DNA from: Laetmonice hystrix
Taxonomy: Eukaryota
DNA: 64,000 nucleotides
Direction of reading: 5' to 3'
Assembly: GCA_965235115.1 (NCBI GenBank)
Contig: OZ249436.1
Location: 32,800,001 to 32,864,000 of the forward strand
Positions 10,404 through 57,650 of the stretch are shown here, piece by piece. The notes under the pieces are model-generated. The model worked only from the letters and a program-made list of their open reading frames with translations, was not told the origin of the DNA and did no database searches. A program made the translations under genes and the position numbers. Position 1 is the stretch's first letter. The number at the start of each line of letters is the position of its first letter.

Positions 10404-10729
10404 TGTCAGTGGTATGGAAGGCGTATGTCGTTATTTTTGTCAGTGGTATGGAGGGGGTATGTCGTTATTTTTGTCAGTGGTATGGAGGGGGTATGTCGTT
10501 ATTTTTGTCAGTGGTATGGAAGGCGTATGTCGTTATTTTTGTCAGTGGTATGGTGGGGGTATGTCGCTATTTTTGTCAGTGGTATGGTGGGGGTATGTCG
10601 TTATTTTTGTCAGTGGTATGGAGGGGGTATGTCGTTATTTTTGTCAGTGGTATGGTGGGGGTATGTCGTTATTTTTGTCAGTGGTATGGTGGGGGTATGT
10701 CGTTATTTTTGTCCCTGGTATGGAGGGAG
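10404..10729. repeat. 35-bp minisatellite, ~9 copies
   Basis: TGTCAGTGGTATGG(A/T)GGGGGTATGTCGTTATTTTT repeated. Confidence 0.97.
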
Positions 10730-11195
10730 AAAGTCGTTAGGGACGGGTACGCGATGCTAGTTCTTATTTAAGTCACATTAATATTTATTATTGGGACTGA
10801 TATTTGATAATAACGCTTTCAGTCTGGTCCTACATTTAGCTCCTGACTGTAAAATGATTGCAGTGAGGTAATTTATTTTCTAGAGTGTAAAAAGTGTGTA
10901 GATGTAAAATGAATTAAACGCCATTCTAATTAAAATTAATTTTGTGTGAACAGGTTCTATGATAGTCCCCCCCCTTTCATTTGTTTCCCTTTTATTTTTT
11001 CTTACATTTACTTTGTTCGAAGATTGGAGTGAATTGGGGCTACAGAGTAATAAGTGGACTTCTACCATATAAAAACGTTTAAAGCGTTTTGCATCTTCAC
11101 TCTCTTGGGGACCATAAGATGCTTGTTTGAGTTTTAACAGATTTAAAAGTTTTAAAAGGCCTTCAGGGTTGTAGAATTAAGAACATCTTTACCGG

Positions 11196-11680: not shown

Positions 11681-12097
11681 ATGCCACTGCTAAGACTGTG
11701 GAACAGGCCACAGGCAAGGAATAGTTACTGCCGGAGTGCCACATTTATTCTAACATTCACACTTCTTCTCAGAGCCTTTTCGGCTGGCGAAGGAGAAAAG
11801 AAGGCTTACACCCTTGGTTTCATCGCTGTGTTGTCAGGAAACCAGACCTTCGAGAAACGTTACTATATTGGAGCCATAGAGTATGCTGTCCGGTACGTCA
11901 ACGAACACAAACTGCTAGGCAAAGATGCCATATTAAAATATATATACACAGACACAAAAGGCGATCCTTTACGATCGATTAAGGCTATGACAGATTTTTA
12001 TCAAAATAAGGTGACGGCTTTCATTGGTCCAAGCACCGATAAATGTATTACGGAGGCTCTTATCGCGTCCGCATGGAACAAACCCCTCGTCTCGTTC
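11681..12097 (+). CDS. rGC coding exon 1 (signal peptide and start of ectodomain)
   Basis: MPLLRL...[27 protein letters not shown]; donor GTAAGT at 12098. Confidence 0.9.
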
Positions 12098-15000
12098 GTA
12101 AGTATTACAGTTTATATCTTCTGGTAAGTTGAAATCTTTTTCAGGTCTATCAAACCAAGCGGTAGAGTAGGCCCATGCATCATGGGCCTAGTACGGTGGC
12201 CCAAAAGTACACCACGGCTCGGCTAAAACACAAAACCTCGTCTCTGCTTACCCAAATCTTCGGCTCGGCTAGCGAAAACCTCGGCTCGGCCACCTGGAGT
12301 GGTATCGCAAGGGTTAGGGTTAGTTAGGGTTAGCCGAGCCGAGGCTTTTGGTTAGGCGGCCGAGCCGAGGTTTTGTGTTTTAGCCAAGCCCTGGTGTACT
12401 TTTGGGCCACCGTAAAATAGAGGCTAAAGTGTTGTTGGCATATCTTCTGCTCGGAAAGAATATTCTGGTTGGGCTGGTTAAGTTGTGAAAAAAGGCCCAG
12501 GCCACTTTCCAATACGGTCAGCTTTAAACCAAAGAAATTAGTGGAGAATTCCGACGGTCTGCCTGATCAGCACTGAACCCTGAGTAATATTCTATTTTCC
12601 CCATACGACACATTTTAAGTTTAAAGAGACTCATGGAAAAACTTGCTTTGCTGTTGTGTTGTGTTAAAACTGTTCATTTCACCCCACAGAAGGCAACTTG
12701 AGCGGAAGTTCAGTTGCTCTCGTAAGGACAATGATTACTGATTGTACTGATTGGACATACGTCTTACCTCTATCGTAATTATACATGGACTGTTTGGTAG
12801 CAACGATACTAAAGCAACATTTAACTTCAGAGGTGCCGTGATTCTGAAGTTACTGAATCCAAGCTGAAGTACCCAACATTCGTTCGTACCTTGCCGCCAA
12901 CCAAGAAGGTCGCCAAGTATATTATTACCATACTCAAACATTATGGGTAAGTATAAGAAAGGACAGATGTACTAGGGGTGGGGTGGGGGGTACCAGGGGA
13001 TATATGGCTATCTCCACCCTTGTAAAACTCAAGGGCAGTCCCCTTCTCGAGATAATAATATATAATGGGGACACGTTGACCTGTCTGTTTGCAGGTTATA
13101 CTATCCTAGACTTGACACTTCTTCTACCTACTTACTACATAAATTCACCTAATATTTGTAAAAGCACCTAATATCCAACCTATCTTCTCGTTATAGCTGG
13201 CACAAGTGCGTGTTGGTGGTGGGCAAAGCGGACGGCCTGACGAGGTGGATGGCGGCCGCGGACGCCCTAAAAAATCACGCCAGACAAGGGAATGTTACCA
13301 TAACGGACGTCAAGTACTTCAAGGAGCCGTACGTCCCGACTCGTTATGCTTCAGACACCCTCTCTTCAATAGTAACAAGTACGATGGACAGAACCCGAGG
13401 TGAGGTACATTATGTATTCCACATTTACCAAGGTCACTCCTGTGATTTATTAAGAACATTTATCGGTCGATGCCGGACACCAAGGATGCTGTGGACCAAT
13501 GAAATGCCTTCTGAACGACCTGGACAAAACAACTAAACTGATCGATCTCAGTGGGCTCTTGTTTGTTTTCCTGCAAGCATGTTCTCTTATGTGAACATTA
13601 GGGAATTTTCGTCCAAGGTAGGATCAGGCATGCTCGGTTTAAGTATACTGATAAGTCGAATTGATCATTTTTCGCCGTGAATCGAATTGATTATATTTAG
13701 TAAGGCTGAATAAAATAAGAGAGATAGGTTAATTTTTCATGCTTATTGCACATTTCACATAATAGTCTGTACTTATTCATGCCTCATCTTGCAGTGTATG
13801 TGTTTCTCGGAGAGAAAGATGCGTTAATTGATTTCGCCCGCCGGAAACAGGCAATTCTACAAGAGGACGAAGGGAAATATGTGATCTTAGCAGTCCAGGA
13901 GGGCTACTACCAGGAGAATAAACGGGATCTCATTTTTAAATGGACCGACCCAATCAGTAATAAGTGTGAGTGTATTTACCCAGCACTTTCTGAACAAGAG
14001 GAATTGCTTCGTTTTGCTGCATTCAACGGGAGTTGAAAGGCTCATGTATTTAACCCCCACTTACAGGAAACAGGCTGTCACTCAAATAAATTGATGTTTA
14101 TTCCTTTACGTTATGTTGTCTTTTTTAATCGGCACATGTGATTTTCTTAATTACAATTCAATCTTCGAACACAAAAATAGCTAATTCTTATTATAAAAAT
14201 GTCACTACATCTTGTATCTTTTTCATCAACCCTCTCATATCTGACAGCACAACATGTTCAGGTGATCGTGATGTTTCAGGGGACAAACCATCACATCCAA
14301 AATTTCTTAAATGTTTTGGCAAAAGGATGATTTGTTTTATAACTTGTCACTTGCACTGCAGCTTCCGATACGATCGACCCGATGGATAGCAACACGCTAG
14401 CAATCCGTAATATCCTCTACTTGCTGCAGCAACCCCCGGCTAACGAGACCAAATACCGAGCCTTCCGCAAGGACTGCCTCAACCTCACCCTGCAAACCTT
14501 TAAACAGATACCACGACCACCGTCATTTCTCGAGAAACAAGCAGTGGACTGGGTGAGCTAGGTCCCACATTTTTCGGGGATTAATAGCCGGGCGGAAATG
14601 CCTACTGAAGGATACTCAGATAGGCCAAGCGACAATGGAGAACAGACAAAAGCGTGGGCCAAAAGAATAGGCCTTCAGAAATTTCAAACCATAGTTTATT
14701 ATACCGGTTAATTAACTTATTATAGTAACATTTCATTTCTTACCTTACAGGTAACAATATATGCTGCCTACCTTCACGACGCTGTCATTGTATTTGCTCA
14801 CGGTCTGAGGCGAGCCCTGTCTAAAGGCATTGATCCCAACAATGGCACAGCCTTGACGAATGCCATTATCAACACGACGTACCAAAGTAATTACAAGGCA
14901 GTATGTTACTACTACTATGAGACACATAGCACGCAATCTTTCTCCTCTCACACATGGGTAGACTGATTTTGAGGCAATGGTTTATGTAAAATCGTGAAGT

Positions 15001-18000
15001 ATTGAAGGAAATGAGGTAATACAGCCACTTTAATTACAAGGCAGTATGTTACTACTACGGTCCTATGAGACACATAGAATATATACGATTACGCAGCCCC
15101 CTTTTTGGCCCCCTCTTTCTCCTTTTTTCTTCTACTACACTGTATTAATCCTGTTGGCCACGTTTGTTAAAGTCGTACTTTTTGGGGGCCAGCTTTCCTT
15201 TATTATTCACCCCCCCTTCATTTGTTTTCTCAACATTCTGGATCCGTCCAGGTGTCCCAATGTCGGGTTTACCCCCCCCCCCCCCCCCCCCCCCCATCAG
15301 ATTACCGGGGGGTAACCTGAAGTTAACCTTAAATTAACCCCCGGTAATCTGAAGTTGGTTTCAAATTACCGGGGGGGGGGGGGGGGGGTAATTTGAAGTT
15401 AACTTCAGAGTAGCCCTCTGTAAATTCTCTATACTAATAAATGTGCTTGAAGGAACATATAAGTATGTGCTCGGTCACAGGTATTCAAGGCTACGACATG
15501 TCCATCGACGAAAGTGGAGATGCGGAGGCAAATTATATTCTGACTGCACTGCAGGCGAGAAAATGGTTGATTGTTGGGAACTTCTCAAAGAATAACGGCT
15601 CCTTGGTAATTGTTTTCTTACATCAATGCCAGTATTAAAATCGAGGAGTTGTTTTTTCTCTGATGGTCTCAGGCATAATAAAATCTATTATATTATTATA
15701 TGATTTTTTCATTATTCTAATAGACATGCTAGATTGATAATGAACATTTTATGGAGGAGAGGAAGAAAAATGATTTAATATGCCTTCGCGGAAATTCAAT
15801 TCGAAAGTGTCATTGGCTGCGTGTATGGTCTAGTACTTGAAGCGCTGGTTAAAGAAAGAAACCATAGTCTTCACCAACATTTATATTATACACTGTCGAG
15901 GTACTTTTAGTAGCAAGCAAAATGACCAAAAAGCTCCTTCATGAAAAAAAATATTGTTTAGCACAGTTCTTCACAGTTTTCAAATAACCAGGATATTCGA
16001 TTCTTATGCCGTTGATTAAATTCAACAGGAACAAAGTCACGGATGTAATTAAAGCCCATAAATTCATATTTCACGCTTTATGTTAGGCATGCACTGTGAC
16101 AACCATGATCAATCAAAAGCACTTGTTTTGTATGAATAAGGAGAATATTTTGTTATTATACGAGTATGGAGAATGTTTTGATGTCGTTCACAGAGCTTTC
16201 ATTCAAGAGATATCAAGTGGATCAATGGAAAACCAGTTACCGAACCAGAGTGTGGATTCAAGGGCGAAGCGTGTAAATCTGAACAAAAAAGTAAGTCTTG
16301 TTTCTACTTTTGTAGGATCTGTTATTGGAACTACACTGTTTTTCTAGATGATGGATATTGAAAACTAGTACACCAGAGGCTTTTTATGTACTCTGTTTGG
16401 CTAAATTACTCCGAACTGACAAATTTGTTGCTGGATGGAAATATATGAAAGGAAATGTGTGTTGATATATGAATAATTCTTTAGGTTATCATGCTGGTCT
16501 CTTCGTGAATTATGACGTTACTATTCCTATTCAGGGACAGGTATCATCATTGGATGTGTGCTTGTCCCAGTAGTCCTGCTGGGAGTCGCCATGCTCTACA
16601 GGTAGGCCCGCATTAGAGATAGACCTACAAAACTATGCTACAGGGTGTCTCAGAGAAAACGAAATCCTAAAAAAATCATCATTTTATGATGATTTTATGA
16701 TGAGAAAATGATATAAGTTCCCAAGTGTATCTGATAGCCCTAAACCTCCTCTTTCCAATGGTGTGGAATTTCTTTTTTCTGAGACGCCCTGTATATTGGC
16801 GTTCCACCATGCTCAGTTCTGAGTTATGCGGTTTATGATGGTCCACGATACAAAGACATTCAAGAGCTCCGGATTGAACTTCTAAACTTTGTTTGCTAAA
16901 GATTTTCTTACTATAGACAACCTCTGCTTGGCGGCTTCCCCCTAACAATTCACATGTTTGATGAGATCAAATTGGTTGCCTCTCTTTGACCAGGCACTAT
17001 CGGTACGAGCAGAAGCTGGCCTCGTTGCTGTGGAAGATTGAATACAAGGACCTTTTGATCACGGAGGGGGAACTAAACGACTCGACCATGTCCGAGAGGC
17101 CCAAGGTACAATTACCTCGAAAAAGGTTTCCTATATATGTCCACACCAGGCAAACTCCAACACCTCTTGCCTTGACGAGTAGCATAGGGCCTACGGTAGA
17201 CCGTTACATACACTTTCAGATAGATTAAACGCTTGTACATTTTCTACTCCAATTTGCATCCAGGATCTGACGATGTTGGATATTGCAACATTCACCTCCA
17301 AGGTAAAGTTGTTCTACGTGATGTTTCAAAGACAGGTACACCTATTTGAAACGTACACCTGCTTCTCTATATGTCTTTAGCTTGTTTATGCCCTTGTGTG
17401 CAATGCCACGAGTCTCGTCTTGGTGGAGATGTCGGTGACTAGGCCTAACGTGTGTATTTCTGGCCGACAGAGGCGAGACGGAGGCCGACCGAGCCTACTT
17501 TTTCCGGACGAATGTCGGGAAGGAACAGCTGTTCCACACCGGCCCGTCGCCATCAAGGTCGCCTCGTATAAAGGGTCGCTCGTCACAGTGCGCATGCTGA
17601 GGAGGAGACACGTGGAAATCACGCGGTCAGTGCGTAAAGAGCTGCAGGTGGTGAAGGAGCTGGTGCACGACAATGTCAATAGATTTATAGGAGCGTGCAT
17701 CGACCCTCCAAATATGTGCATCGTGACACAGTACTGCGCAAGAGGGTCGCTCAAGGCAAGTAGAATGTTCTCAAACACTTTCTTTAAGAATTGGTTGTTA
17801 TCCATCCGACATATCACGATTTACAATCACGATGCTTCAATTCGCATGTAACTCGTTTACTTCAGTCTGCATCACTCACCGATTGGTTCAATGTTTATAG
17901 CGTGTTTCAGGATAGCTTAGAAAACGACGACCTAAACCTCGACGATATGTTTATAGCGTCACTCACCAATTGGTTGTTTCAGGATATCTTAGAAAACGAC

Positions 18001-21000
18001 GACCTAAACCTCGACGATATGTTTATAGCGTCACTCACCAATTGGTTGTTTCAGGATATCTTAGAAAACGACGACCTAAACCTCGACGATATGTTTATAG
18101 CGTCACTCACCAATTGGTTGTTTCAGGATATCTTAGAAAACGACGACCTAAACCTTGACGATATGTTTATACCGTCACTCACCGATTGGTTCTATACTCT
18201 GTTTCAGGATATCTTAGAAAATGACGACCTAAACCTAGACGATATGTTTATAGCGTCACTCACCGATTGGTTCTATACTCTGTTTCAGGATATCTTATAG
18301 AAAACGACGACCTAAACCTAGACGATATGTTTATAGCCTCATTCACCGATTGGTTCTACTCTGTTTCAGGATATCTTAGAAAACGACGACCTAAACCTAG
18401 ACGACATGTTTATAGCGTCACTCATATTCGATCTCATACGGGTAGGAGATTTTAATCGTGAAAATCGTAAATGAAAAAGATAAAAGCATTATAAATTACA
18501 CATTTAGACATTTCATGTAACAGTTACCCAGAAAATCCAAAGATGTTTCGCCATCTTCCAACAGGGCATGATCTTTCTCCACGACAGTGAGATTGGATCG
18601 CATGGTAACCTAAAGCCATCCAACTGTGTCGTTGACTCACGGTGGGTTCTCCAAATCTCCGATTTTGGTCTTCATCAACTCAAAGGTTGCGAGTTCCCTA
18701 GTCTTTGCGATGAGGACAGTTACTACGGGCGTGAGTATGGATTCCAGTATCATCTTACGGTTTTTGTAAGTACCGGAATGGAAGCCAGAAGGTCTATCAG
18801 TTTAAGTAACAGTAGACAAGCGACTTTAAGTATGGGAACCACTGTCAAATCCAGTTGGGTATCTTAAGTAATTGAAAACCGTATCAATCAAAATTAATAG
18901 AGTTCGAAACGATTAACAATACAATGGTGTTTGCTTAGTATATATCATACACCAGTATCAATCCAATGCGGTTTCTTTAAAGGGAGGGAAAGCCCACACG
19001 GCAAATAATGTTTCGTAGGCCAAATGAAACACCAGCATTTACCACAAGGCAATAAATGCCACAATGACGCTGGTTCTGACCTTGACCTGCTGGTGTGTTC
19101 ATCACCTCGGACGTTTACAAACATTTACAAAGACTGGGACTCCAAACACCGTGTAGACAAGATCTGTGAGCAGAGTAACACGTAATGTTACGCAATATGC
19201 CGTGGTGTGCAACATTCGGCTGTGATGAACACACAAGCAGAACGAGCGGCGTTACGCATCGGGCAGTTACACGTTAATTACTTCATTCAGACAATGTAAT
19301 TGTGGCATTTATTGCCCTGAGATAAATGCTGGTGTTTCATTTGGTCTACGAAACCATATTTGCCGTGTGGGGTTTCCATCCCTTCAAGTATGGAAAACAG
19401 TGTCACTGTTGCCAAAGATACTTACGAGCATCAAGGAGTCCTGCTTTTTTCTATTTCTTTTGGCCTTGTTTTGCCATGTCAATATGTGGCTCAAAACATA
19501 TAAGGAAGTGTACCTTTGATAGTAAAATGGCAGGCTTTGCATTCCCCTTGAGACGTCGTAGATTTAACGTTTCTGACAGACCAGAGGAGAAAAATTATAA
19601 ATAGATAAGTAACATGGACTATCGGGATATTTGCGCTGAGAGCATATACCTCGGGAAGGATGAAATGCCTGTCCTAATGACATCTGTCAGTTGGCGTGAT
19701 ATTATAACACAGCATCACGGTGAATCTATTCCCATGTACCACCGCTCAAATCAAGTTTTAGAGCACATTCATGAATAAAATATAACGGTCCCGCTGCAGC
19801 GTATGATAACATGGGAAACATCAGCAGGTGAGGAGGTGTTGCTAGTGACAAGTAGGGACAGATTCGATCCGTATTTATTCTGGCGAAATAGACCACGGGA
19901 ATGACTCCGTCGTGCGGCTCTGCTTTCAGGGTTACTGTGGCGAGCGCCCGAACTGCTACGAGATCCTGGCATGCGACCGAAGGGAACACAGAAAGGAGAC
20001 GTGTACAGTTTTTCGATAATTCTGTTTGAGGTCCACAGTCGGTCCGGACCGTGGGGACCCACCATGTATTCACCTCGAGGTACGTATGTTTGAGAAGGTT
20101 TCAGTTTTGTACAGGGGAATGTGATTGGGGTGAAAAATAAAATTGTTACGCATTTTGTCTTATGAGTTTAGATGACAAAGACATGCCTAATCTTGTAAAG
20201 GGGTGCGATTTGATATTATATATTAGGCTACTTAAGAAGATGGGAACCGGAAAGTAAGGGTTCGTTACATACAAACATATATATGCATTGAAGTCAAAGA
20301 CAACAAATTCCTGTTACATCCTCTTTTCTCTTTCCAATCATACCAAAACTCATACCATTATGTTACTGGCACTGATTACTGAAGAACACTTTTTCTAACG
20401 CCAGTGTATTTAATACGCCTTTTTGTTCGATTTAGCCCGGCCAATTTGAAAGGAGAAAAAAATCTTTTCAAAGCAATAAACAAAACAAAACGATAGCATG
20501 GTTTATGATATCATTATGGTACACAGTAAGTCGAAAAAAAGCTATGCGTGCCGACTATACGTCCCGAATGGATTCTGGTACACCTTTGGGTTTTTGTGGT
20601 GTGTACCACTGACGCTGCCTATGCCTATACTGTTTATTTTAATTTTGAAGAGATTATTGAGAGGTTAAAGTACCCCCCTGACGGCTTCATCCTCCGGCCG
20701 GACACATACCTCCTCAAGTGTGAAGACTTGAGCATACGCTGTATCCGGGAATGTTGGCACGAGACGCCGGAGTGTCGGCCCGACTTCAAGGCCATCCGCA
20801 TCTTACTGAAACACATGCAGCGGGGACTGTGAGTGTCTCCTTCCGGGTATGGGAATACCAAAAAAAATCACAAAGTTAGCCAGTGCCAGGATTATCTTAA
20901 CAGTGGAATGTACCGTAAAAATCATGTGTGTACGCGTAGCTCCATCTAGGAAAGCATGGATTCCGTCTCATCTCGGAAGATAATGTAAGGGGAGGGCCCA

Positions 21001-24000
21001 TCGTCCCGCTCGACCAGCAAAGCTCCGTTTTTTATGGAAGTGGCTGTGGCCGAGCGGGTATGGGCGTTGATACTTTATGTTATGCGAATAGGTGCAGTAA
21101 TCTTGGGGCCGGGGGTCGATTTCAGTAGGGTACTATAAAATTGAATCTGTATATTCTAAAAGTGGACTGGGTTACGCCTGATGCCCGTGCACATTGGAGA
21201 TAGAGTCCCATTTCCCTAAAAAAATGGCACCATTATGTAGGATCCTGTACCAAGCGGGGGGACAAATCGTCCTGTGGTATATCTTCATAATAAATTAAGG
21301 ACCATCTGATGGATTTGTCCATGTGAACAATATTTGATTGATTCCATATTACATATTGCAGGAAATCAAATATTTTTGACAACATGTTGGCAATCATGGA
21401 GAAGTACGCCAACAACCTGGAGGTGGTTGTCGCCGCCAGAACCGAACAGTTGGAGGAGGAGAAGAAAAAGACCGAAGCCCTGCTACATCGCATGTTGCCA
21501 CGGTCAGTAAAATGCCGGTAAAACGTTATTACCATGACATGTTGAAAGGGTCTGCGTGTCTTTCATTCGGTTGCTTTTCACGTCAATAACACGGAATCTG
21601 TTAAATTAACCATTTAAAATATTGAAACGTTTGCCCCTGTTCACACGTGTTTTCCCCCACCTGAATGTTGTCGCTGTTCGTTGCGTTGTTTCACTATAGG
21701 ACCGTTGCCGACCAGTTGAAGCAAGGTGTACCTGTTAGCCCAGAACATTACAACATGGTTACCATCTACTTCTCGGACATCGTCGGCTTCACTGCCATAT
21801 CGGCGGAGAGTACGCCCTTACAGGCAAGTGCAAGTCTCTGGGCTCTCTGTTTCTTGAAATCAACAGCAGCGGCCATCACTCTGCTTCATTTAAAGTATTT
21901 CATTTGGGGAAGAAATAAACGAATAGGCTATCACTTGAAAAACAGAAAATATTACCGGAAGAAGGGGGAAACGTTTCAAAAAATCAAAAAATATTTACAG
22001 AACGGCGGAAATATTTGCACACCAGAGAAATCAGTATAAACTTGAATAAGGGAAACAATGAGGGACTTTGTTACCGTCTTTTCCGCGTGGCGGCAGCACT
22101 ATCAACCCGGTCCCCTTGGGCTACATTATTATGACGTTAGATAGGTCGACGAAATGCTAATCTATCGCTAGGTGCCGTAGTGCTATTTGCTATGAAATAT
22201 TATGATACGTTTAGGAGTTCTACAACATGATGAAGCCTATCAAGTTATTTTTTTTCATAACAAATAGTCTAAACACATCCTGCCACAGATTAGCATTTCG
22301 TCGTCCTATCTAACGTCATACTAATGTGTAGCCAAGAGGACCGGGCGACAGTGCTGCCGCCACGCGGATATGACTGGAAATGTGCCGTTGCGCATGCGTC
22401 TCAAGGAGTGTGAAGTCCCTCATTGGATGTCGCTTATGGTCCACCGTACATAGGTTTCTGTCCCTCCAGTTTTTCGTTCCTATTGTTGTAACGATGACTA
22501 TTTCTATTGTTGAGCAGGTTGTCGATCTCCTTAACGACCTGTACACGTGTTTTGACTCGATCATCGGTGAGTACGACGTGTATAAAGTGGAGACGATCGG
22601 GGACGCCTACATGGTGGTGTCAGGGCTACCTATCCGTAACGGCGACAACCACGCTGGAGAGATCGCCTCCATGTCCCTACACCTGTTGCATGTCATATCA
22701 ACCTTCCGCATACGACATCGTCCTGAAGATAAGATAAATCTACGCATTGGCATACACTCAGGTGATGAAAAGTTTATCAGACGACACGTGGCCTGTCTTT
22801 AGGTTTCAATAGTTATGATATTTCACCCACGCACTCTCTTTGAGCAGTTGGCTTTCTAAATGGGTGATTTTGGGATGGTGTAGATAGAAATAATGCGTAT
22901 ATTTTGTCTAGAAATATAATGCGGACAGATGGTACGAAAGACGAGTAAACGCGGGTTGTAGAGAATGAAACAGACTATATTAAATTGCTAAGTCATTCTG
23001 AGATGTTACTGTGTCAGCTAATTGAAAGTGTTTGGTCTGGCAGGTCCGTGCGTAGCGGGGGTGGTAGGCCTGAAGATGCCGCGGTATTGCCTGTTTGGGG
23101 ACACAGTCAACACCACATCTCGTATGGAGTCTACGGGAGTGCGTAAGTGCATAATTATGTATAAAATATGAAGACTCTTGACGCACCGAACTGTGTGACA
23201 AGCCTAACAGAATCTGTGTTTATTTGTAAAAGTAAAAAAAATGAACGGGTATTAATTGGTGTCGGATCTTATTAAATGACAATAGATAGTGGCTAGAGGA
23301 ATATACCGCCACTGTTAACGTGAAAGCAATAATTGTTTATTCTGACCCAAGTATAAGATTATGCAACATCCTAAAACATTGTCCGTCGCACTGGAAACTA
23401 TTATAATCGTTATGAAAGGTGTGATGAAGTCTACAAAGGGCGTCCACCTTTTCAGTGTTGCATGACTTTCCTGCAATTGCTGTAGACCAACTCGTCTATT
23501 ATTCTACAGCCTTGAAGGTTCACTGCAGTGGATCATGTAAGCAGTTGCTAACCAAACTAGGAGGTTATCTCATTGAGGAGCGGGGGCTAGTTTCAATCAA
23601 GGTATGTGGCTATTCACGAGGAGCGGGGGCTAGTTTCAATCAAGGTATGTGGCTATTCACGAGGAGCGGGGCTAGTTTCAATCAAGGTATGTGGATATTC
23701 ACGAGGAGCGGGGGCTAGTTTCAATCAAGGTATGTGGATATTCACGAGGAGCGGGGGCTAGTTTCAATCAAGGTATGTGGATATTCACGAGGAGCGGGGG
23801 CTAGTTTCAATCAAGGTATGTGGATATTCACGAGGAGCGGGGGCTAGTTTCAATCAAGGTATGTGGATATTCACGAGGAGCGGGGGCTAGTTTCAATCAA
23901 GGTATGTGGATATTCACATGACTGAATATCGAAGAAATAAGGGGTTATGATGGTATAGTAGGCATGTAGATCCACGTGTAGGACCACCCGCCAAATCTAT

Positions 24001-24415
24001 GACTGAACCTAAATGTCAGCCCGCTCCCTCTCAATCGATATTTTTTCAGTTTGGCTGTAGGACTCAATCCTATGCCTTCATTATCATTCCCTACCACAAA
24101 GCCGGCGTACTTGCTAACTCAGTACTCGTGATGCAGGGAAAAGGTGAAATGTTCACCTTTTTTGTGGTTGGCGAGGACAAGTCTCATCGTCTGCGACGTA
24201 TCTCCGTGGAACAGCGTCCATGGTTGGCAGATGTAACACTTCCCAGCCTCCAACACCAGGCGGCGCCACGGAGCGTGACGGAAGCGAGTTGCACCTCTTC
24301 CCTGCACAGCTTCGACTCGGGCGCCGACACCGAGGGCGTGCAACTTCTCAACAACGGCAGTGTCCCTTTCTTCAAAGTTAGCTGCAGCTACGCCAATCTG
24401 GAATCGCAAGTATGA
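11681..24415 (+). CDS. Gyc32E: Receptor-type (single-pass) guanylyl cyclase, Gyc32E-like; 22 coding exons, ~1167 aa: signal peptide, ANF-receptor ectodomain, TM, kinase-homology domain, coiled-coil hinge, cyclase domain
   Basis: Exons join in frame: 11681-12097, 12831-12946, 13197-13399, 13795-13965, 14362-14552, 14751-14886, 15481-15605, 16194-16290, 16535-16601, 16994-17105, 17264-17302, 17471-17755, 18370-18441, 18565-18730, 19930-20079, 20651-20828, 21362-21502, 21700-21823, 22518-22761, 23044-23142, 23510-23601, 24137-24415 (3504 nt). Motifs: [70 protein letters not shown]. Juxtamembrane [16 protein letters not shown] recalls Drosophila Gyc32E; orthology is recalled, not tested. Confidence 0.95.
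12194..12412. mobile_element. TA-flanked MITE with an internal TTAGGG-like tract
   Basis: TA|CGGTGGCCCAAAAGTACACCA ... TGGTGTACTTTTGGGCCACCG|TA. Confidence 0.85.
12831..12946 (+). CDS. rGC exon 2
   Basis: ttcag|RCRDSEV...[11 protein letters not shown]...HYG|gtaagt. Confidence 0.9.
13197..13399 (+). CDS. rGC exon 3
   Basis: ttatag|WHKCVLVVG...MDRTR|gtgagg. Confidence 0.9.
13795..13965 (+). CDS. rGC exon 4
   Basis: ttgcag|[16 protein letters not shown]...GKYVILAV...|gtgagt. Confidence 0.9.
14362..14552 (+). CDS. rGC exon 5
   Basis: ctgcag|SSDTIDP...KQAVDW|gtgagc; phases match both neighbours. Confidence 0.8.
14751..14886 (+). CDS. rGC exon 6
   Basis: ttacag|[19 protein letters not shown]...NGTAL...|gtaatt. 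Confidence 0.9.
15481..15605 (+). CDS. rGC exon 7
   Basis: tcacag|[19 protein letters not shown]...|gtaatt. Confidence 0.9.
16194..16290 (+). CDS. rGC exon 8 (juxtamembrane Cys pair)
   Basis: [21 protein letters not shown]; donor gtaagt. Confidence 0.9.
16535..16601 (+). CDS. rGC exon 9 (transmembrane helix)
   Basis: [20 protein letters not shown]; ttcag acceptor, gtaggc donor. Confidence 0.85.
16641..16791. mobile_element. Tc1/mariner-type MITE
   Basis: TA|CAGGGTGTCTCAGAGAAAA ... TTTTCTGAGACGCCCTG|TA. Confidence 0.8.
16994..17105 (+). CDS. rGC exon 10
   Basis: [20 protein letters not shown]...RPK|gtacaa. Confidence 0.9.
17264..17302 (+). CDS. rGC putative 39-nt symmetric micro-exon
   Basis: tccag|GAT...AAG|gtaaag = [13 protein letters not shown], phase 0-0. 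Confidence 0.55.
17471..17755 (+). CDS. rGC exon 12 (kinase-homology N-lobe), ends at a GC donor
   Basis: ...[15 protein letters not shown]...[10 protein letters not shown]|gcaagt; an alternative in-frame acceptor could start the exon at 17381. Confidence 0.85.
17869..18424 (+). repeat. Tandem array of 7 acceptor + partial-exon units (72/81 bp)
   Basis: TTTCAG|GAT units starting 17911, 17983, 18055, 18127, 18208, 18289, 18370. Confidence 0.97.
18370..18441 (+). CDS. rGC exon 13 (productive copy after the acceptor array)
   Basis: [24 protein letters not shown]|gtagga. Confidence 0.85.
18565..18730 (+). CDS. rGC exon 14
   Basis: [36 protein letters not shown]. Confidence 0.95.
18981..19383. 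mobile_element. TTAA-target MITE (Kolobok-like), copy 1
   Basis: TTAA|AGGGAGGGAAAGCCCACACGGCAAATA...; long TIRs; homologous to 46681-47066. Confidence 0.8.
19930..20079 (+). CDS. rGC exon 15
   Basis: [10 protein letters not shown]...[16 protein letters not shown]...GPW. Confidence 0.95.
20651..20828 (+). CDS. rGC exon 16
   Basis: EIIERLK...[13 protein letters not shown]...MQRGL. Confidence 0.95.
20860..21225 (+). mobile_element. tRNA-headed SINE-like repeat, permuted copy
   Basis: A-box-like TGGCCGAGCGG near 21047 and B-box-like GGGTCGATTTC near 21113; homologous to 9166-9495. Confidence 0.6.
21362..21502 (+). CDS. rGC exon 17 (coiled-coil hinge)
   Basis: [18 protein letters not shown]...[21 protein letters not shown]. 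Confidence 0.95.
21700..21823 (+). CDS. rGC exon 18, ends at a GC donor
   Basis: VADQLKQG...[22 protein letters not shown]|gcaagt. Confidence 0.95.
22057..22425. mobile_element. Long-TIR MITE in rGC intron 18
   Basis: CAATGAGGGACTT..AAGTCCCTCATTG ends; 22082-22163 is reverse-complementary to 22288-22369. Confidence 0.75.
22518..22761 (+). CDS. rGC exon 19 (cyclase core)
   Basis: [13 protein letters not shown]...[17 protein letters not shown]...LRIGIHSG. Confidence 0.97.
23044..23142 (+). CDS. rGC exon 20
   Basis: [32 protein letters not shown]. Confidence 0.97.
23510..23601 (+). CDS. rGC exon 21
   Basis: LKVHCS...[15 protein letters not shown]|gtatgt. Confidence 0.93.
23575..23917 (+). 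repeat. Tandem array of 8 exon-end + donor units (43 bp)
   Basis: GAGGAGCGGGGGCTAGTTTCAATCAAG|GTATGTGGATATTCAC at 23575, 23618, 23661, 23703, 23746, 23789, 23832, 23875. Confidence 0.97.
24137..24415 (+). CDS. rGC terminal exon
   Basis: [14 protein letters not shown]...NLESQV*, TGA at 24413-24415. Confidence 0.9.
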   Translation, partial: GKGEMFTFFVVGEDKSHRLRRISVEQRPWLADVTLPSLQHQAAPRSVTEASCTSSLHSFDSGADTEGVQLLNNGSVPFFKVSCSYANLESQV

Positions 24416-28637: not shown

Positions 28638-29129
28638 ATCCTATTCTTATGACTGAAAACCTCGATTGGCATTCAGGCCAGCCCAGATGCCAATGGGGTA
28701 CCTTGTCTCTAACTATTACCCTCATGTCCGTGCGAATTTTACCATATGTGGGCGAATGTTAATGAATAGGGTCAAAGAGGGTGGGATGATTTCCCTGTAT
28801 GGGAAATGGGATAATAATCGTGTGTGATCAGGAATCCAAATCTTGTGACATAGAGTTAGGTTATATCATCGTGTTAAAATGAAGAAGGGGTGACGACACG
28901 AGGTATATTATCACGACATAACATAGGTCTAGTCTCTACGGAAGATTCGAAACAGTCAGTTATTATGGCGTTATATGGGCCTGCACCAACACGCCATTTA
29001 TCTGTACGGATGGTTTCAATAGGCCGACGAAGGAAGAGATATAGATCTAGGCCTATTGGTACCACTATGAAAATATTATCCTCTGTGAGATATCCGGGAG
29101 GAGTTGATATCTAACTGTTTCTGTTGTTT

Positions 29130-29434
29130 TCAACATTCTTCTGCCTGAGGTTCAGGGACACACGGGGATTGTTCCCCTCCGCTGTCGTCCACGAATGCAG
29201 AATTTGCAGTGGCGAAATCAAAAGGAATAATTATTGTTGGTGTAGAACTACCAGAGCCCCGTCGCCCCCTGCGTAGACGATGTCGGCACGAGCAAACTGT
29301 TCCGAAAGCGACGACAACAACTAACACGACACCAAGGGCACTGACGATAGCAATAGTCTGGTCACTCCAACGCCCGCTACTGTCACCACTGGTATATGTC
29401 TGCACTGTTGATGACACTGAAACGAAGCGAAACA
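29130..29434 (-). CDS. CACHD1-like terminal exon (TM helix and cytoplasmic tail)
   Basis: TIAIVSALGVVLVVVVAFGTVCSCRHRLRR...AEEC*; two in-frame acceptors give exon edges at 29434 and 29416. Confidence 0.85.
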
Positions 29435-32400
29435 CTTAAAGGAGAAGACCAGTCAAAAATCACATTTGGACAGCTGCAAGGCCTCTATATGCACTCACCT
29501 TTCAGAGTAGTGGTTGGAAATAAACATCCCCCCATTCCAAGAAGTCATATGTTGAACATGACAACCGTGTCAAAATCACTGGCTTCAGCGGCGCAGCCAT
29601 TTGTTGCTATTGGGCTGGCCGGAAGTGACGTTTCGGGGCTAATCTATTGTATGCAGGGGCTAGGCTAGACTAGACTAAAGTAAAGGCAGCCGAGGCGTAT
29701 CGGCAAAATCAACGGGGGTCAGTCCCACAGTCACAGTCACAACTAAAACAGGTCTGTGCTGAAGTGACCACAAGAGTCTGACACTGCCAGCACCCGCCCG
29801 CGGTCGAAGCCACGGTCAGGGCCCGGCCCAGTCGCCCTGCGGGTGCCGTCAACATCACGAATGCAGGCGGCCGAAACCCACGGCTGGAGCTTGCCGAGAT
29901 CCGTGTCCACCCTGATATATCCCCTGACATCGGTAGGCTTAATTCCTAGCCAATCCTCTTTACTATGATCGGTAGTTTTCGTCTATGTTCTAACAAATTT
30001 TGCTTATATAAATAAGCTGTCAACGTTCGCTCATAGACCATACAGCATGGTCTATGGTTCGCTCAACGCAACAGGTGCGTCAGTTTTTCGTTCCTCCCAA
30101 ACTGGAGAGCAGTGGTTGGAGCATGCGCAAAGTGAGATTAGACATTAGCTCAAGCAGACAGCTATGGCCGCCATCACCAGCGGAGCAGGTTCTAAGCAGA
30201 CTCCGGCACTGAAGTGCTTATATTTTAACTATTTGAGCACCAATTGTGTTCAAATATTTTTTAACTTGCTTAGAATATCACGGCCTGTGTGCCTGGCCTG
30301 TACAGACTGGCGGTGGTCTTTTCTTTTATTTGAAAGACTTAAAGGTCTGCACGCACTTCGAAAATCACAAACTGGTTCTGTCTGACCTGAACGATATCAT
30401 TTGAATTTATTTAACAAGGAACTGACCCGGCGAATGACTCATAATCAGATATTTCTTGGTGGTAGCTTGGGACTCCTTTGCCTCGCGAATTACGGCGGCT
30501 CGCCGAAAGTTGGACTGCTTACAACTTGACCGTGACCACAGCACATACATAATCTTATGCATTCTCACGCTCGCTCACGGGGGGGGGGGGGGATTCCCCA
30601 ACATGTGCTTGTAATGTAAACAGAAATTCGTCCAGTTTACTTGCATCCCACGCACATGACGTACCTCACTGCACTGCCACAACTTCAGTTAAAAAACGCA
30701 GGAAATGTGAAGGAGATAGGCTATTAGTACTTGTATTAGTAGGCTGTTGGAGTTGCGACCCAATGACAATACCGGGCTTGCTGAGATCCTTCTACTAGGC
30801 AGGTGAGACTTTGGACGTTTGGTCTGTACATGGGAATTTTCTGATTTGAACATTAGGGTGAACCATTTAGTCGTTATTCATACTATAAGTATTAGGAAGG
30901 GTCGTCATTGTCGGTTACAGCTTTGAAAAGTATCGGCCGAGGACCTCAACTGGCAGCACATCACGTGACACCAGGGAGTTCCCCCGTCCGTTCCTGGCCG
31001 CAGTTCAAAATGGCGTCTAAATGCGCAGAAACGGGTTTACGGTATAAGACTGACGAATTCATGTTAATATGACCAGATTATCGTTCCTTTCTCAGCTAAA
31101 AGGCAGGTATTACTTACGATATCGTTCCTGCTTGATGTTGAAAGCGTTTGGGGGAAATATAGGAAAATTGTCAACATTGGATGTCATTATATTGGTTTAT
31201 GTCCATGCCTCTAGGCCACTCTCTTAGAAACAATGACATACGCCACCAATAACTTGCCAGAGAAGTTTAAGGATCCAATGGCATAAACCTTTCCAGAGAT
31301 AACCTGCCCTGTTTGCACAGAAATATATCATTTTTTAACAATCTACGTCAATATTATATATCGATTTACTTCTAAAAATAACGAAACTGTACGAGCAACC
31401 GTGCCATTCTTGCTTGGACATTGAAACATACGATCGCATTTTACTCCAGCTTGTTAACGTTCCTGCCCGCGAGCACCCGTCCGACTAAACACCGAAACCA
31501 ACTGAAACTGACCGAATCTGACTGACTGGCATCAGGGCCCGGTTTCAGAAAGGTTAGCATCTTTTTAACTTAAGCTCTGCTCCGGACTGATTGGCTGGTC
31601 ATATGCTGCTCAGCTTCAACCAGAGAATCAGAGGCCCTATAAGCAGATCTTACCTTAAGATCCCCTTTCTGAAACCGGGCCCTGGTCTGAGATGAATTTG
31701 CAAACAGGTAGCTATATCGGAAAAAGTTGGATTTTTTTTTAAATTTAAGACGTAATTGGTTCCCTTTAATTATTTACCTGTAACAGCTTCAGTCGTGGCT
31801 ATCTTCCGAGGATCATGACATCGACGTACATCTTCTGAACAGGTTGAAGGAGACAGGACATGACCCTCGTCATCCGTCCTACCCCGACACCACCTACAAC
31901 CTCTCTGGTGGCACAGTCTGGGCAAAAGTGGTTCATATCAGACTCGCAACATGTGAAGTGAGGACATGGGCATTTCGATCTGTATTGGACTTTAGCTTTA
32001 CCGATTTACGCCTCAGCCACATGAAACCGGAGAACGCGGGGCATCCACCTTGCAGCAGGTAACTATGAAATCCGGCTTAGACCTGTAACCAGCATTTCAA
32101 AAAAGGATGGGCGTATTTTGGAAGAAGTTAACCTTTATAAAAAATGGGACCATTATTTTAGAAGAAGCAACCTTTTAGGAGAAATTATGTGGATTGTAGC
32201 CAGAGATTGCATTGAAGAAGGTTATAGGCCTACGCTTCCGCTCTCCGTATTTCTTTTTACACGAAAAAGTAACAGTTTCTCTCATTCCTCGCCTAGGTCC
32301 ATGACCTTTGGCTACTGGGCGGCTCCAATCGGTTGGTTCATTGATTGATACCTTCGGTCCTTTTTTGTTAAAAAAAAAGCCACACTATGCACACAGTTCG

Positions 32401-35400
32401 CAGCGGCGGATCCCGGATTTTGGATGAGGAGGGTATTTAACATGGTAACATGGTAAATTCAAAAAGCTCTATGAGAAAAAAAACGGGGAGGAGGATAACC
32501 CCCTTGATCCGGCAATGGTTTCTGTAGCCTACCCCATGTCCCGGGCGTAACGACATCCTGTGCTACAAGATGAGAAGTTTTCAGAGAGATTCCGGTATGG
32601 TATCTTCGTGTCAAACTCGTCATTAGGAGGTGGCTTTGGTTGCACGCAGAACGGGACCAAACTGAAAGGTCAGAGAAAGAATTAGGAACAGGGCCCGACG
32701 GGCCCGACAAGCCATATGTGTTCGGCGCCTTTAAAATTAAACAGGTGATTATTCTGATATTCACTTTTAATCATATAGTCTTCGGTACAGTACTGTATAG
32801 GTCAGTTTGCAGGGTCGCAGACGGAAGCCATTTCGAAATGGATGGGCATATTAAATTTCGAAATCTTTATAATAAACATTCTGAACTTATTCCGCAAGCT
32901 TTATTCTATGTTATGGCTCCGAAAGATTTCTTGATGAGGCATGCACCAAGTTTTGGCGCCCCTTGTCGGAACTATATTGTAGTGTAGGAATGATGACGTT
33001 GATGTAATGAAGGAGAGACGGGGAACAATATCGTATGGACTGAACTCCTACCTGACGTTAGCGTACAGGTTTGGCCGGTTACTATCACAACGACCGTGGC
33101 TGTTAGCCTCCGCACAGGGACAGTTACAAAGATCGCTACACGGCCCGAACTGAAATAAAGCGTTGACATAATAGGTATCTTCAATCGCTTGTCTGTCATC
33201 TCATGGAGGGTGGCAGTAATAAAGGCGAGACCAGGTAGAATTCGAGTTTATTCGATACGCTGGCGATGGTGAGATGATTAAAAGCCTAAATCTTCCCGAC
33301 TTTTCTGTGAACTATGAAATCAGAAATAATTGCCCTCAGAAAACAGCCAAAATCGGTGCCGTATATTTAACTTTGTATTAAATTAATCAAATCTGTCGGA
33401 GCCATACGAGCCCATCAAAAAGATCTGTCAAGGAAAGGAGATTCTGCACCCGCCTGTGTTCTTAAGGACCGGCATATACGATTTTAACAGGCACCTCTTG
33501 ACAGAAGCAGGCAGGACTTCCCTGTGGTCGATTGGCCTTCACAGTGAGGACGTAGATATTTGTGGCCTCTATGGCATGGAAGTGAAAATATTGATTGAAG
33601 TCGTCACGCGTGATCTGAAACACGTTATTACATGAGCAAGTTCGCAAAGACAACATGCATCTTTTACACAAGAGTTGAAGTTTAGAATATATACCTCGGA
33701 TTAGATTCAGTGTATCTTATATATATCTTATATACAAACAGGAAAACTACCCCGGAGCACAGGCCTTTTGGTCTGATGTTTGTTTCTATTGACCGCTAGA
33801 TGGCAGAACAAAACAAAACTTTTTGTTACGCCAAACTGTAGTTATAGCGTCCATATAATAGGTAGGTCTACGTGAGTTCTTTGAAGGTTAGGCATACTTT
33901 ATAGTCTCACCTGCCAACATTTTTGGATTTCCTCCTTGGCTGGGTCGGAACAAGACGCCCGGACCAGCACGCCAGTGTTTATCAGCTCGGATGCAATCAA
34001 TGGCTCCTGCAAATATACAATATTTACTTCTCCACTATGTTCTTATAATGCCTCACACTTGGCATGTCTTTAACTGTCTCACGTTTAGTATTGTTTTACC
34101 TTAAAACAAGTGAAAAGCTAACTCAAAATCTACCTTTTGCACAATGTGTACACCAGCACTGTCTGTAGAATACAGATAGTCAGGGTGGAAGACCAGAAAT
34201 CCCGTGCTGTCCACAACCATACACCTGTTTCCACAATTAAATAGAATCATATTTTTATATAAAGGTACATTATTGTCTAGAAAAGTCATAAATGCATTGA
34301 AGGAACTGATTAAAATCATCACTCAAAGCTAGGCTTTATTGAGGTTTTTTTTTACTTAGGATTAATTGAGCTCCTGAAATACATCACCGATATTACATGA
34401 GACATTAGTTCGTTTTAACTTTGGAATGCATGTCCTTTCTTCTGTCTCCAGCTCCCGAGTCCCGAGAAGAAACCTGCTGTAAAAAGGTAGTGCCCGAAGA
34501 AAACCCCCGATATTGTCTTCAAAGTTGCTTTACCTATGAGGACGGTTTGGCTTGCATTCTTCAAATGATTCTGACAGTAGGTCCCGGAAGTGGCTTATTG
34601 TTACATCAAATGCCAATACGCCGAGGGTGGTCGAGAAAGTCCGAAAGGTGTTCATGTTCACGTCTCGACTTCCGTACCTATGACATCAACATCATAGGAC
34701 TAGAATTACATTTCTCTTGGACAGAACTAATAAATTGCGATATCATTGTGTGCAAGATTTTTTTCTAATTATATTATATATTTAGGGTTGCGAATTGACA
34801 ATCATCGTTTGTGTGTCGGGCGTTAAACTCTCAACATAAAAAGCGCCCTAAAGCGTATCTACATCTATACGTATAAATGTATTAAATAGGTCAGAATATT
34901 GATGTTCGGACAACCAAAGTACATGTATCCTCATGCACTGATGCAGTGCCCCCCCCCCATTATGAAGCACTAAGGAAACAGGACAAACCTGACAATCGGC
35001 ACAGTTTGGGATATGGTGATGACGTTCTCATTAATCTCAGTGCCATGACGTGGAGACACAATCACTAGTTTACCTGAATGACGTAACGCCTCTTGATACC
35101 TAAAATCACAATTAGTCGTATACGATTGGACAAAACATCCGTTGAAACTATCTGACTCCTCATATTACGTGCTGATTTATGTAAATATATACAATACAGT
35201 CACTGTCCTTTAAAAACTCCATGCAGGCGAGTGAAAAAAGGCTCGCCCAGATTTTTTAGGCGAGCTTTTTTCATCGTTTATTTGGGCTAGATATTTTTCA
35301 AAGGCGACATCAAATAAGTTTAGCGGATAAAGACTTATTTTGGGATATAATGTTAGGCTATCTTTATGGGGGGGGGGGTCCAAATTTTGGAAGGGAATTC

Positions 35401-53524: not shown

Positions 53525-55213
53525 TGAAAAGAATTACCTATCCTGGTGATTCTACAATAATCAGTGACAGTAGGTCTATAAAGGTGCTGACTTCCTCACT
53601 GTATAGTGACGTTCTCAGCGCGGGGACGCTCACAGGACCGTGACGGTTAGAGTGAGGGTGGGGGATTTCCCGCCATAATGGGCTAATTCCAGCGTCACTG
53701 GCGCGACAAAGGATACAACCTTTTCAAACTTATTATTCAATAAAAGAAAAGTTTGACAAAACAATCAACAAATAAGTATATGGTGTTGGAGCATAGAACC
53801 TTTACTTCAAATTCATATAAAAATATTAAAACACAGGGCTTCAAGTGCCCTCTTGCAAAAATATAGGGATAAATATAGGGCGATTGTGACAAAAATATAG
53901 GGCCAATATAGGGCGCATGCATAAATTATAGGATTTTAGGGATTGTAAGCAATCACAACGTATGAAATAACAATAATTCTATTGTTTAACACCATTTTCC
54001 TCACTCGGCCTCGGAGGGGGAGGGTCAAGGAAGGGGGCATCCCCCTCCCTTGGTAGGAAGATTTGAAAATGTTGACATTAATTAAGTGCATTTTGGTGGC
54101 ATAATTTTGAGAGGGATATTAACGGTATATCACCCTGGGTGCAAAACAGGCGCTCTTTACTTGCAAAATGCGAGTGGCGAGTGCACCGGGCGAGAACCCA
54201 AGTCGGTACACTGGTCTGTTCTAGCGAGTGCCAAAAAATGGGCAAAAAACTTTAGGTATCTTAAAAATACCTGGCCTGAATGAAATCTGCTAGGTATCTC
54301 ATCTAAACGACAAGAGGGGAATGGAGGAAGTTCTCTCTATAAGTGACATGAGAATAATTAGGCCTACCTCTATCTGTAAAACCTTTGGGATATTATTCAA
54401 ATAATTATTCAAATCAGGGGATTTGGCACTATCTAGGTTGGTGTAATTAATAAATCTTAATTTATGTAAATATGCGTAAATCAGCGACTCAAAGCCAGAT
54501 ATTGTAAATATACGGACCAGCAGTGCTGACCAGTACGGACCAGTACCTCCTGAGGTATACACTGGTCCATAAAAGCCAGTAGGGGCCTATTTTTTCTACT
54601 ACCCTCCGTTTTGACCCCTGATCACCTAACATGGATTTGGACAAGTTTCACCCTAACCCGCCTATCTATGCTCGTCGCCTATTCCTTTCATTCCCACTAC
54701 CTCACTGTACTGTTTGCTTGGGTATTGGGCCAGCCAGTAAGATGTAGGGACTCCTGACTGTACTATGTGGCTTCCCATACTGCTTGGCCTCACAGTGCTG
54801 TTTGGCCTCAACTGTTTGGCCTCACTGCACTGTTTGCTTGGGTTCTACGGCAACGGGTACCAAGCCTTTATTTTCCAAGAGGCAGGCCATACATTTCGTC
54901 GATCATTTCCTCTCATCTAATCTGTGTCTCCTACAGACCGTCTGTAAGCGTCCTACACCCTTGTCAGGTAGTCCCAATGGCAATTTGCCGTAAAGGTTTA
55001 AATTAACAATGCCAAATGAAATGGTTGTACGCCTTTTCTACATCACATATCTCATCCTCATGTAAAAAAAGATTACAGAGATGTTGCAGGCAAACGCCAC
55101 CCTGCTGTCGTCAGGCGGCGCTTCCGACTGCACTGCCACCTTCCGGCTACCGATGGAATCACCACGTATACCTGGCCGGGCTGGCGGGCACCTGTGGCGC
55201 TCAGCGAAGAGAT

Positions 55214-57317: not shown

Positions 57318-57650
57318 GCGTAATTTTTTTTCCCACATTAGTTCCGGACCCCATTCTAGCTTCAGCCAATCAGTGAACGCCAGACTCTATCGCTCGCGAT
57401 ATGGGACCGAACAGTGTCAGTGAATGTTTCTTATTGACACATCCACTGCTCATCAATTAGTGCCTATTTAACAATAATTTTGGGCTATGAAAACTAACAC
57501 TAACCCTAGGCCTAACCTTTACCCTAACCCAAACACACTGTCTCGCATCTCGCATGTCGTCGCCGGTATTCCATAGCCATATGTGTGCCTGTTTCTGATT
57601 GGCTGTATGAAAATGGGGGGTCCAGAACTAATGTGGGAAAAAAATTTCGC
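57318..57650. mobile_element. Mutator-like MITE, 9-bp TSD
   Basis: TSD GGCCGGGCT at 57309-57317 and 57651-57659; TIR GCG(T/A)AATTTTTTTCCCACATTAGTTC. Confidence 0.9.

Follow-up and report, generated by a model that had tools for sequence, protein, structure and literature searches.

A likely mirage minisatellite across the exon 13 acceptor of a Gyc32E-like receptor guanylyl cyclase gene

The array described here poses the question of how the spliceosome would settle on the last among seven 3′ splice sites, because acceptors 5 and 6 equal the genuine one on paper. Below we describe the gene that carries the repeat, ask whether the repeat is real, and weigh how the gene may live with it.

The host gene and the anatomy of the array

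The array lies in a receptor guanylyl cyclase gene within the window, i.e., the whole 64,000-nucleotide stretch of DNA analyzed. The features at and around exon 13 are as follows (a slash within a motif marks an exon-intron boundary).

11681..24415, + strand: host gene, Gyc32E-like receptor guanylyl cyclase, 22 exons (gene model, tblastn of homologues, Pfam)
17471..17755, + strand: exon 12, encoding the first portion of the kinase-homology domain and ending in phase 0 at the GC donor AAG/GCAAGT
17872..17878, + strand: TCACTCA microhomology in the intron, where the duplicated unit has its left limit
17879..17910, + strand: 32 nt of rearranged intron end ahead of acceptor 1, with an exon-derived piece and an extra AG at -12
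17911..18126, + strand: units 1-3, each of 72 bp (55 nt copied from exon 13 plus 17 nt intron end)
18127..18288, + strand: units 4-5, each of 81 bp (55 nt copied from the exon plus 26 nt intron end)
18289..18369, + strand: unit 6, 81 bp (57 nt exon copy plus 24 nt intron end)
18370..18441, + strand: genuine exon 13, 72 nt, phase 0-0

In the gene model the frame is open over 1,167 aa, and only when exon 13 starts at 18370. PF01094, PF07714 and PF00211 (ANF_receptor, PK_Tyr_Ser-Thr and Guanylate_cyc) score above cut-off on single exons, and exon 9 encodes a hydrophobic membrane span. The ligand-binding, membrane-span, kinase-homology and cyclase domains thus share one open frame, as in a receptor guanylyl cyclase. 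The best named matches of the protein are "guanylate cyclase 32E-like," and it clusters with lophotrochozoans, annelids being nearest; from sequence comparison the host is a lophotrochozoan, probably an annelid. Exon 1 as a homologue-search query gave no match at E ≤ 0.001. Exon lengths range from 39 to 417 nt, and the genuine exon 13 aligns to 24 homologues without insertion. The gene looks alive, because its other 21 exons are intact.

TRF places the array at 17903-18424 (period 72/81, 6.9 copies, 93% matches, score 722). The original prediction of seven acceptors holds: exon starts follow TTTCAG at 17911, 17983, 18055, 18127, 18208, 18289 and 18370, with TTTCAG/G kept in 7/7, and the spacings are 72, 72, 72, 81, 81 and 81. 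The repeated part of exon 13 is its first 55 nt, ending in TCACTCA at 18418-18424. A CTCAC or TTCAC motif had been claimed as a constant of every unit. It is found before the acceptors, but the units are not equivalent, because the A of this motif sits at differing distances: -33 before acceptor 1, -18 before acceptors 2-4, -27 before 5 and 6, and -25 before 7. An eighth acceptor-like AG lies just upstream (exon start 17866).

The exon copy of unit 6, whose intron end precedes the genuine acceptor, carries a 2-nt insertion and reads GAT ATC TTA TAG, with the stop at 18298-18300. The intron part measures 24 nt before acceptor 7 versus 26 nt before acceptors 5-6, which can be read as the "compensating loss" formerly attributed to this copy or equally as the ancestral state. 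Each of acceptors 1-6 yields a translation that terminates at the copy-6 stop, as had been proposed, and the eighth AG would likewise lead to a stop; acceptor 7 gives DILEN...DLIR. The exon copies differ from exon 13 by 2-3 substitutions each, including Ile-to-Ser, Ala-to-Pro and one frameshift, and are drifting freely. Neither a donor regenerated at the acceptor (AG/GT) nor a donor in each unit, as in recursive splicing or a micro-exon array, was found; all acceptors are AG/GA. The GTs within the units all carry a pyrimidine at +3, where a purine stands in 20 of 21 genuine donors.

The non-canonical GC donor noted earlier upstream of the array is present as AAG/GCAAGT at 17756. Intron 18 of the gene has a second GC donor with no array beside it. 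The GC donor is therefore not tied to the array, and we rejected it as part of a device. A comparison of the end of exon 12 covered 145 proteins, 121 of them with the motif. Among the 71 relatives that do not continue with D followed by I, V, L or F, the next residue is Val (GT) in 57 and Ala in one. The intron position between exons 12 and 13 is old, since relatives share the exon end and, in these 71, mostly run on into Val, which implies a GT donor.

Contig evidence and a sister donor array

The contigs come from four sequencing runs of one sample and one study. In each of the three contig sets of DNA type, the long contigs on either side end inside the acceptor array, at 17932, and restart at 18377 or 18395. 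No contig across the array occurs among the 32 pieces listed, nor a joint that skips it among the 15 of 55 joints listed. The contig breaks at the array fit a real repeat. The ends at 17932, 18377 and 18395 compare with 17945 and 18369 expected from the window haplotype alone, a hint of a second allele. One contig begins at 18377, exactly where copy 6 starts matching exon 13, which hints that the second allele has the copy-6 insertion as well. A rival reading is that the assembler made the array or its TAG, or that this is a dead allele giving no normal mRNA; in its favor, contigs do not cross the array. We give this explanation scarcely any credence: the units differ by ordered, shared variants, three runs have contigs breaking at the array limits, and the remaining gene is intact.

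We tested 44 exon ends in the gene for junction repeats, and found only the exon-13 acceptor array and an array at the exon-21 donor.

23575..23917, + strand: sister array of 8 copies, each with the final 27 nt of exon 21, donor GTATGT and the intron start

The donors of this sister array run from 23602 to 23902 with spacings of 43, 42, 43, 43, 43, 43 and 43. The array is out of frame, six of the seven spacings being 43 bp. Run X4 informs on its use. All 13 non-repeat bins with X4 depth contain exons, the wholly intronic non-repeat bins are empty (4/4), and 4/8 of the pieces listed match exon ends within 4 nt. X4 is thus probably spliced RNA; its kind is not on record. An X4 contig joining exons 21 and 22 was placed on the genuine first donor, where the observed depth is 1.54; the expected depth is 1.54 for 30 letters on copy 1 and 1.28 for 25. 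From this one contig and the depth arithmetic, the first donor of the sister array is probably the one used. X4 cover is absent over exons 11-13 and the acceptor array, and is uninformative on acceptor choice.

How the gene may tolerate seven acceptors

A working gene would need the distal acceptor (7), a reading that the sequence supports. Any duplication that spans a junction has a geometry in which the normal exon is restored from the outer site only. What would lead the spliceosome to it is less obvious. By a rough weight matrix trained on 20 sites, acceptors 1, 5 and 6 score 8.7 and acceptor 7 scores 9.4; genuine acceptors in the gene range from -2.4 to 13.7, so that all four fall in the upper range. 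Acceptor strength is thus rejected as the selector, as it does not separate acceptors 5-6 from 7. Exons from acceptors 5 and 6 would be 234 and 153 nt long, within the range of the gene. GGG runs are absent from 17756-18441, which rules out the G-run mechanism by which the distal site is chosen in the human CBS duplication (below) and leaves a likeness in layout only. Predicted RNA pairing also fails to single out acceptor 7: averaged over the 20 nt preceding each of acceptors 1-7, the unpaired probability is 0.29, 0.38, 0.48, 0.43, 0.46, 0.49 and 0.46 (window 150), and the predicted fold of 18200-18460 has z = -0.02. Because strength, G runs and predicted structure do not single it out, the selection of acceptor 7 can only be inferred.

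In our judgment the array is quite likely a mirage minisatellite, tolerated through near-constant use of the last acceptor and close to neutral. It is a head-to-tail repeat whose unit crosses an exon-intron boundary and duplicates splice signals. It may have arisen by slippage or unequal exchange at the shared TCACTCA, giving a 79-81 bp duplication; further rounds would have expanded this, and a 9-bp deletion would have given the 72-bp units. TCACTCA is common to the intron (17872) and the exon (18418), as the original prediction had it, and TCAYTCA occurs at all unit joints (8 sites); microhomology at the unit limits fits a tandem-duplication origin. The six extra exon copies would now act as intron. 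Acceptor 7 would win not by a stronger sequence of its own, but through exon definition, being the only acceptor to pair with the exon-13 donor over an entire 72-nt exon; an enhancer, if there is one among the 17 non-repeated bases of exon 13, may help it. Rare leak to acceptors 1-6 would meet the copy-6 stop and enter nonsense-mediated decay (NMD). In a crude uniform-seeding model an array hits a junction with probability 0.19-0.33, so no special targeting of junctions is needed. That both of the gene's two arrays sit on junctions has a joint probability of ~0.06 in this model, and there is therefore room for junction bias.

The leak may be larger. In a leaky and mildly harmful array, acceptors 5/6 or skipping of exon 13 would take a real share of transcripts, and full-length cyclase would be lowered in an allele-dependent, unselected manner. 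Acceptors 5-6 equal acceptor 7 in score and spacing, and skipping of the 72-nt exon 13 stays in frame, giving 1,143 aa. Precedent exists in the 25-bp donor VNTR of ABCA7, which, in extracts of PMC5954066, combines low use of the second donor with length-dependent skipping of the next exon. The same extracts have the use of the pseudo-donor itself unchanged with length, and pseudo-sites are little or not used in the amphioxus mirages, CBS 844ins68 and the F7 VNTR, so far as extracts on these systems go. We regard the leaky array, including the lowered cyclase, as rather unlikely.

A selected device is a stronger claim. The original prediction had proposed a dial by copy number, for which we found no support, with an NPR-C-like decoy as one output. 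NPR-C is a membrane receptor that is stable and has no more than a short cytoplasmic tail. The truncated products here would be 656-782 aa long with ~150-275 predicted intracellular residues, unlike such a tail, and in length not NPR-C-like. The device might instead be a "safety catch," the stop in the last copy sending in-frame leak products to decay and sparing the dimer from poisoning by inserts in the kinase-homology domain. Units 1-5 are indeed open and in frame, the stop lies in the one copy where reading from each of the six upstream acceptors is caught, and the contig start at 18377 hints at the insertion in a second allele too. Against this, two unit lengths underlie the in-frame spacing, which may be chance (about 1 in 9 for the pair), a stop would fall in the last copy of six about 1 time in 6, intron pieces of like size are stop-free 62-71% of the time, and the sister array is out of frame. 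A selected device, whether dial or safety catch, therefore seems to us very improbable. The bolder combination, in which the array leaks, a selected last-copy stop, one mutation at the sole position that spoils all six alternative products, diverts would-be dominant-negative receptors to decay, and array length forms a heritable cGMP dial, is quite improbable.

Known systems and implications

Canestro 2002 is said to be the defining paper on mirage minisatellites. In amphioxus, extracts of PMC3087553 and PMC3902484 describe mirages in Adh3, the globins BflGb6 and BflGb9, troponin C and PGBD5. As here, the repeat unit crosses an exon-intron boundary with its splice signal, the reported unit range of 10-160 bp includes the present units, and repeats may involve 5′ as well as 3′ boundaries. 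BflGb6, with 6 and 3 units, shares the acceptor type and comes near the present copy number. The lancelet Adh and TnC mirages reportedly yield no aberrant mRNA (extracts of PMC3902484). The cases differ in host (lancelets versus a probable annelid) and in that all acceptor spacings here are in frame with a single stop, in the last of the extra copies. According to these extracts, tests of normal splicing were made in amphioxus; at the exon 12-13 junction here it is predicted.

Human systems offer partial likenesses, again as extracted. In CBS 844ins68 (c.[833C;844_845ins68]) the distal of two duplicated intron/exon junctions is strongly favored, dropping the upstream copy with its damaging change, and the mRNA of carriers is normal (PMC2630376, PMC1802585). 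It has one extra copy versus six here, and G runs that promote the distal site, where our array has no GGG. The 37-bp VNTR in intron 7 of F7 (PMC1557585) resembles the exon-21 array, with identical repeated donors of which the first is used; it is of donor type, and its 5′-to-3′ scanning model does not explain the choice of a last acceptor. The dial idea has a known analogue, because the ABCA7 intron 18 VNTR contains a splice site and can, with its length, alter isoform ratios and feed NMD; its 25-bp unit is of donor type, however, and length acts on skipping of the next exon and not on use of the repeated site (PMC5954066). By title, no annelid mirages were found in the literature on mirage minisatellites and splicing. 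Extracts on an earthworm metallothionein gene describe intronic minisatellites and untranscribed exon-4 duplicates, with no mirage, and those of PMC10078293 give general links between repeats and splicing only.

The array is thus likely a known kind of repeat whose six extra acceptors are ignored, and it adds a probable annelid to the lancelets as a host of mirages. Acceptor and donor arrays within one gene make a natural test bed, and gene annotation should be wary of such arrays. If leak or copy-number dependence proved true, minisatellites across junctions would be a widespread and overlooked cause of variation in expression. They would also offer a path to new introns, which extracts of PMC3087553 propose for amphioxus globins.

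Host gene and acceptor array

The acceptor array, seven tandem copies of the end of intron 12 and most of exon 13, is a real feature of this gene. All seven acceptors of the original prediction were found in the sequence as described, with the expected spacings of 72, 72, 72, 81, 81, and 81 nt, as were the stop in the sixth unit (copy 6, 18298-18300) and the non-canonical GC donor upstream (17756). Translation bore out that only acceptor 7 keeps the frame open: acceptors 1-6 each run into the copy-6 stop, and acceptor 7 gives a 24-residue exon (DILEN...DLIR). TRF delimits the array to 17903-18424 (93% matches); each unit joins 55 nt of exon 13 to an intron end of 17, 24, or 26 nt. The TCACTCA proposed for the breakpoints is indeed common to intron (17872) and exon (18418) at the array limits. 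A mosaic intron end precedes acceptor 1 (17879-17910, + strand) and includes a 13-nt exon-derived piece; this mosaic was left by a separate rearrangement of the array edge.

With exon 13 starting at 18370, the 22-exon model (11681 to 24415) is a single open frame of 1,167 aa in which ligand-binding, kinase-like, and cyclase domains are all detected (Pfam). Its top named relatives are labelled 'guanylate cyclase 32E-like', and human NPR1 is the closest solved structure to the exon 12 peptide. A phylogeny of the intracellular portion, built with 24 homologues hand-picked from 130 fetched, places the protein inside a lophotrochozoan group (support 100/99), adjoining one unnamed protein and then Lamellibrachia and Capitella (92/94, not starred). 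By this placement the gene comes from a lophotrochozoan, probably an annelid. The Owenia homologue is placed elsewhere, away from the host protein. None of the 24 homologues has a repeat-like insertion at the exon-13 point. GC begins 2/21 introns, the second such donor being that of intron 18 (CAG/GCAAGT, 21824, + strand). High-copy dispersed repeats occupy parts of introns 14, 16, and 18 (18860-19570, 20760-21230, and 21940-22650), with a summed contig depth of 10^4-4x10^5; the intron 14 repeat has opposite-strand joints, the pattern expected of an inverted-repeat element.

Proposed selection of the distal acceptor

Scored with a rough matrix, acceptors 1-7 reach 8.7, 4.4, 4.4, 4.4, 8.7, 8.7, and 9.4, and the gene's other 20 acceptors, our comparison set, range from -2.4 to 13.7. 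An additional AG precedes acceptor 1 at -12, and the branch-like A of acceptors 2-4 is at only -18. Acceptors 5 and 6 appear sound and would give exons of ordinary size (234 and 153 nt, respectively). Since these two are comparable to acceptor 7, its own sequence strength was rejected as the selector; neither predicted RNA structure nor G runs helped to explain such a choice. We infer selection by exon definition, in which the full 72-nt exon would be recognised as a unit, acceptor 7 pairing across it with the donor of exon 13, perhaps assisted by the 17 unrepeated exon-13 bases. Any leak products from upstream acceptors would be cleared by decay, since their stop falls about midway through the frame and 141 nt short of the exon's end.

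Sister donor array and sequencing contigs

The same gene carries a second junction repeat, the sister array. It and other features of the window are:

23575-23917, + strand: sister array, the final 27 nt of exon 21 plus its donor, in eight copies spaced 43 bp, once 42
10404-10739, + strand: array of 34-bp units, 9.9 copies, about 1 kb 5' of the start codon
4145-5384: C-rich 56-bp minisatellite, about 19 copies and a diverged tail
about 29100-47600, - strand: multi-exon gene, hydrophobic stretch near 29300
54700-60400: several tandem blocks, each a few hundred bases long, with 18-bp sub-repeats

The sister array's spacing is out of frame, and its donors 2-8 would produce frameshifts or stops. 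A search with all 44 exon ends found near-identical copies only at the exon-13 acceptor and exon-21 donor junctions. The array of the original prediction therefore has an out-of-frame partner in the gene, and in-frame spacing is no rule. Under a crude model of uniformly seeded duplications, the chance of a junction hit is 0.19 and 0.33 for the individual arrays and ~0.06 for both, values that would neither require nor rule out a seeding bias toward junctions. Every 34-bp unit contains TTTTTGTCAG, which resembles an acceptor, and GTATGT, which resembles a donor; this array is possibly a 5'-UTR junction repeat, at a place with no known exon. No exon link was found for the 56-bp minisatellite. 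The minus-strand gene, with a weak VWA_2 match (46356-46676, E 0.032, below the Pfam cut-off), presumably resembles VWA/cache-domain membrane proteins.

Contigs from four runs of one sample were placed on 17200-24300. In the three DNA-type sets (X1-X3), long flanking contigs stop at 17932 and resume at 18377 or 18395. No piece among those listed, a minority of the full set, spans the array, and 0/15 of the joints listed, out of a table with 40 more, skip it. From the window haplotype alone, contigs would be expected to end at 17945 and 18369. The ends seen coincide with the array limits +/-29 and with the position from which copy 6 matches exon 13. They fit a real array plus a second allele of different composition, which may also carry the 2-nt insertion of copy 6. 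The contigs differ from the window by 11-15 mismatches per about 733 letters at 17200-17932, and likewise at other flanks, pointing to high sample heterozygosity. The fourth run (X4) is probably spliced RNA, a nature read from exon-only depth, the record carrying no RNA label: outside high-copy repeats, 13/13 bins with depth hold exons and 4/4 bins lying wholly in introns have none. The X4 contig at exon 22 runs on for 30 letters placed on the first, genuine exon-21 donor, a slight hint of normal splicing at the sister array alone.

Regulatory readings and known junction repeats

The original prediction saw the array as a possible dial, its copy number setting full-length cyclase against an NMD target or NPR-C-like decoy. 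That only the outermost acceptor yields the normal exon is a matter of geometry. Two in-frame unit lengths are expected by chance about 1 in 9 times, and a short intron piece has a 62-71% chance of containing no stop. The intron with the GC donor is an old one that begins with GT in most relatives, GC being a change there, and a GC start recurs at intron 18. At 656-782 aa, the predicted truncated proteins would not make short-tailed decoys. The single stop does lie in the only copy that intercepts all six alternative products, and this placement remains curious; a selected safety catch or dial seems to us very unlikely.

Minisatellites whose unit spans an exon-intron junction (mirages) are described, in portions of PMC3087553 and PMC3902484, from amphioxus Adh3, globins, troponin C, and PGBD5; there the BflGb6 mirage has 6 and 3 units on two haplotypes, and splicing is reported as undisturbed. 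By these portions, the anatomy here is exactly that of the amphioxus mirages, and the acceptor array has three anatomical mirage features. Excerpts on human CBS 844ins68 (PMC2630376; PMC1802585) describe a duplicated intron/exon junction whose distal site is strongly preferred, so that a pathogenic change carried by the upstream copy is spliced out. The F7 VNTR, in part of PMC1557585, is a donor-type counterpart, and part of PMC5954066 indicates that the ABCA7 splice-site VNTR can change isoforms with length, not through use of repeated sites. The acceptor array is a new case of the already described mirage kind.
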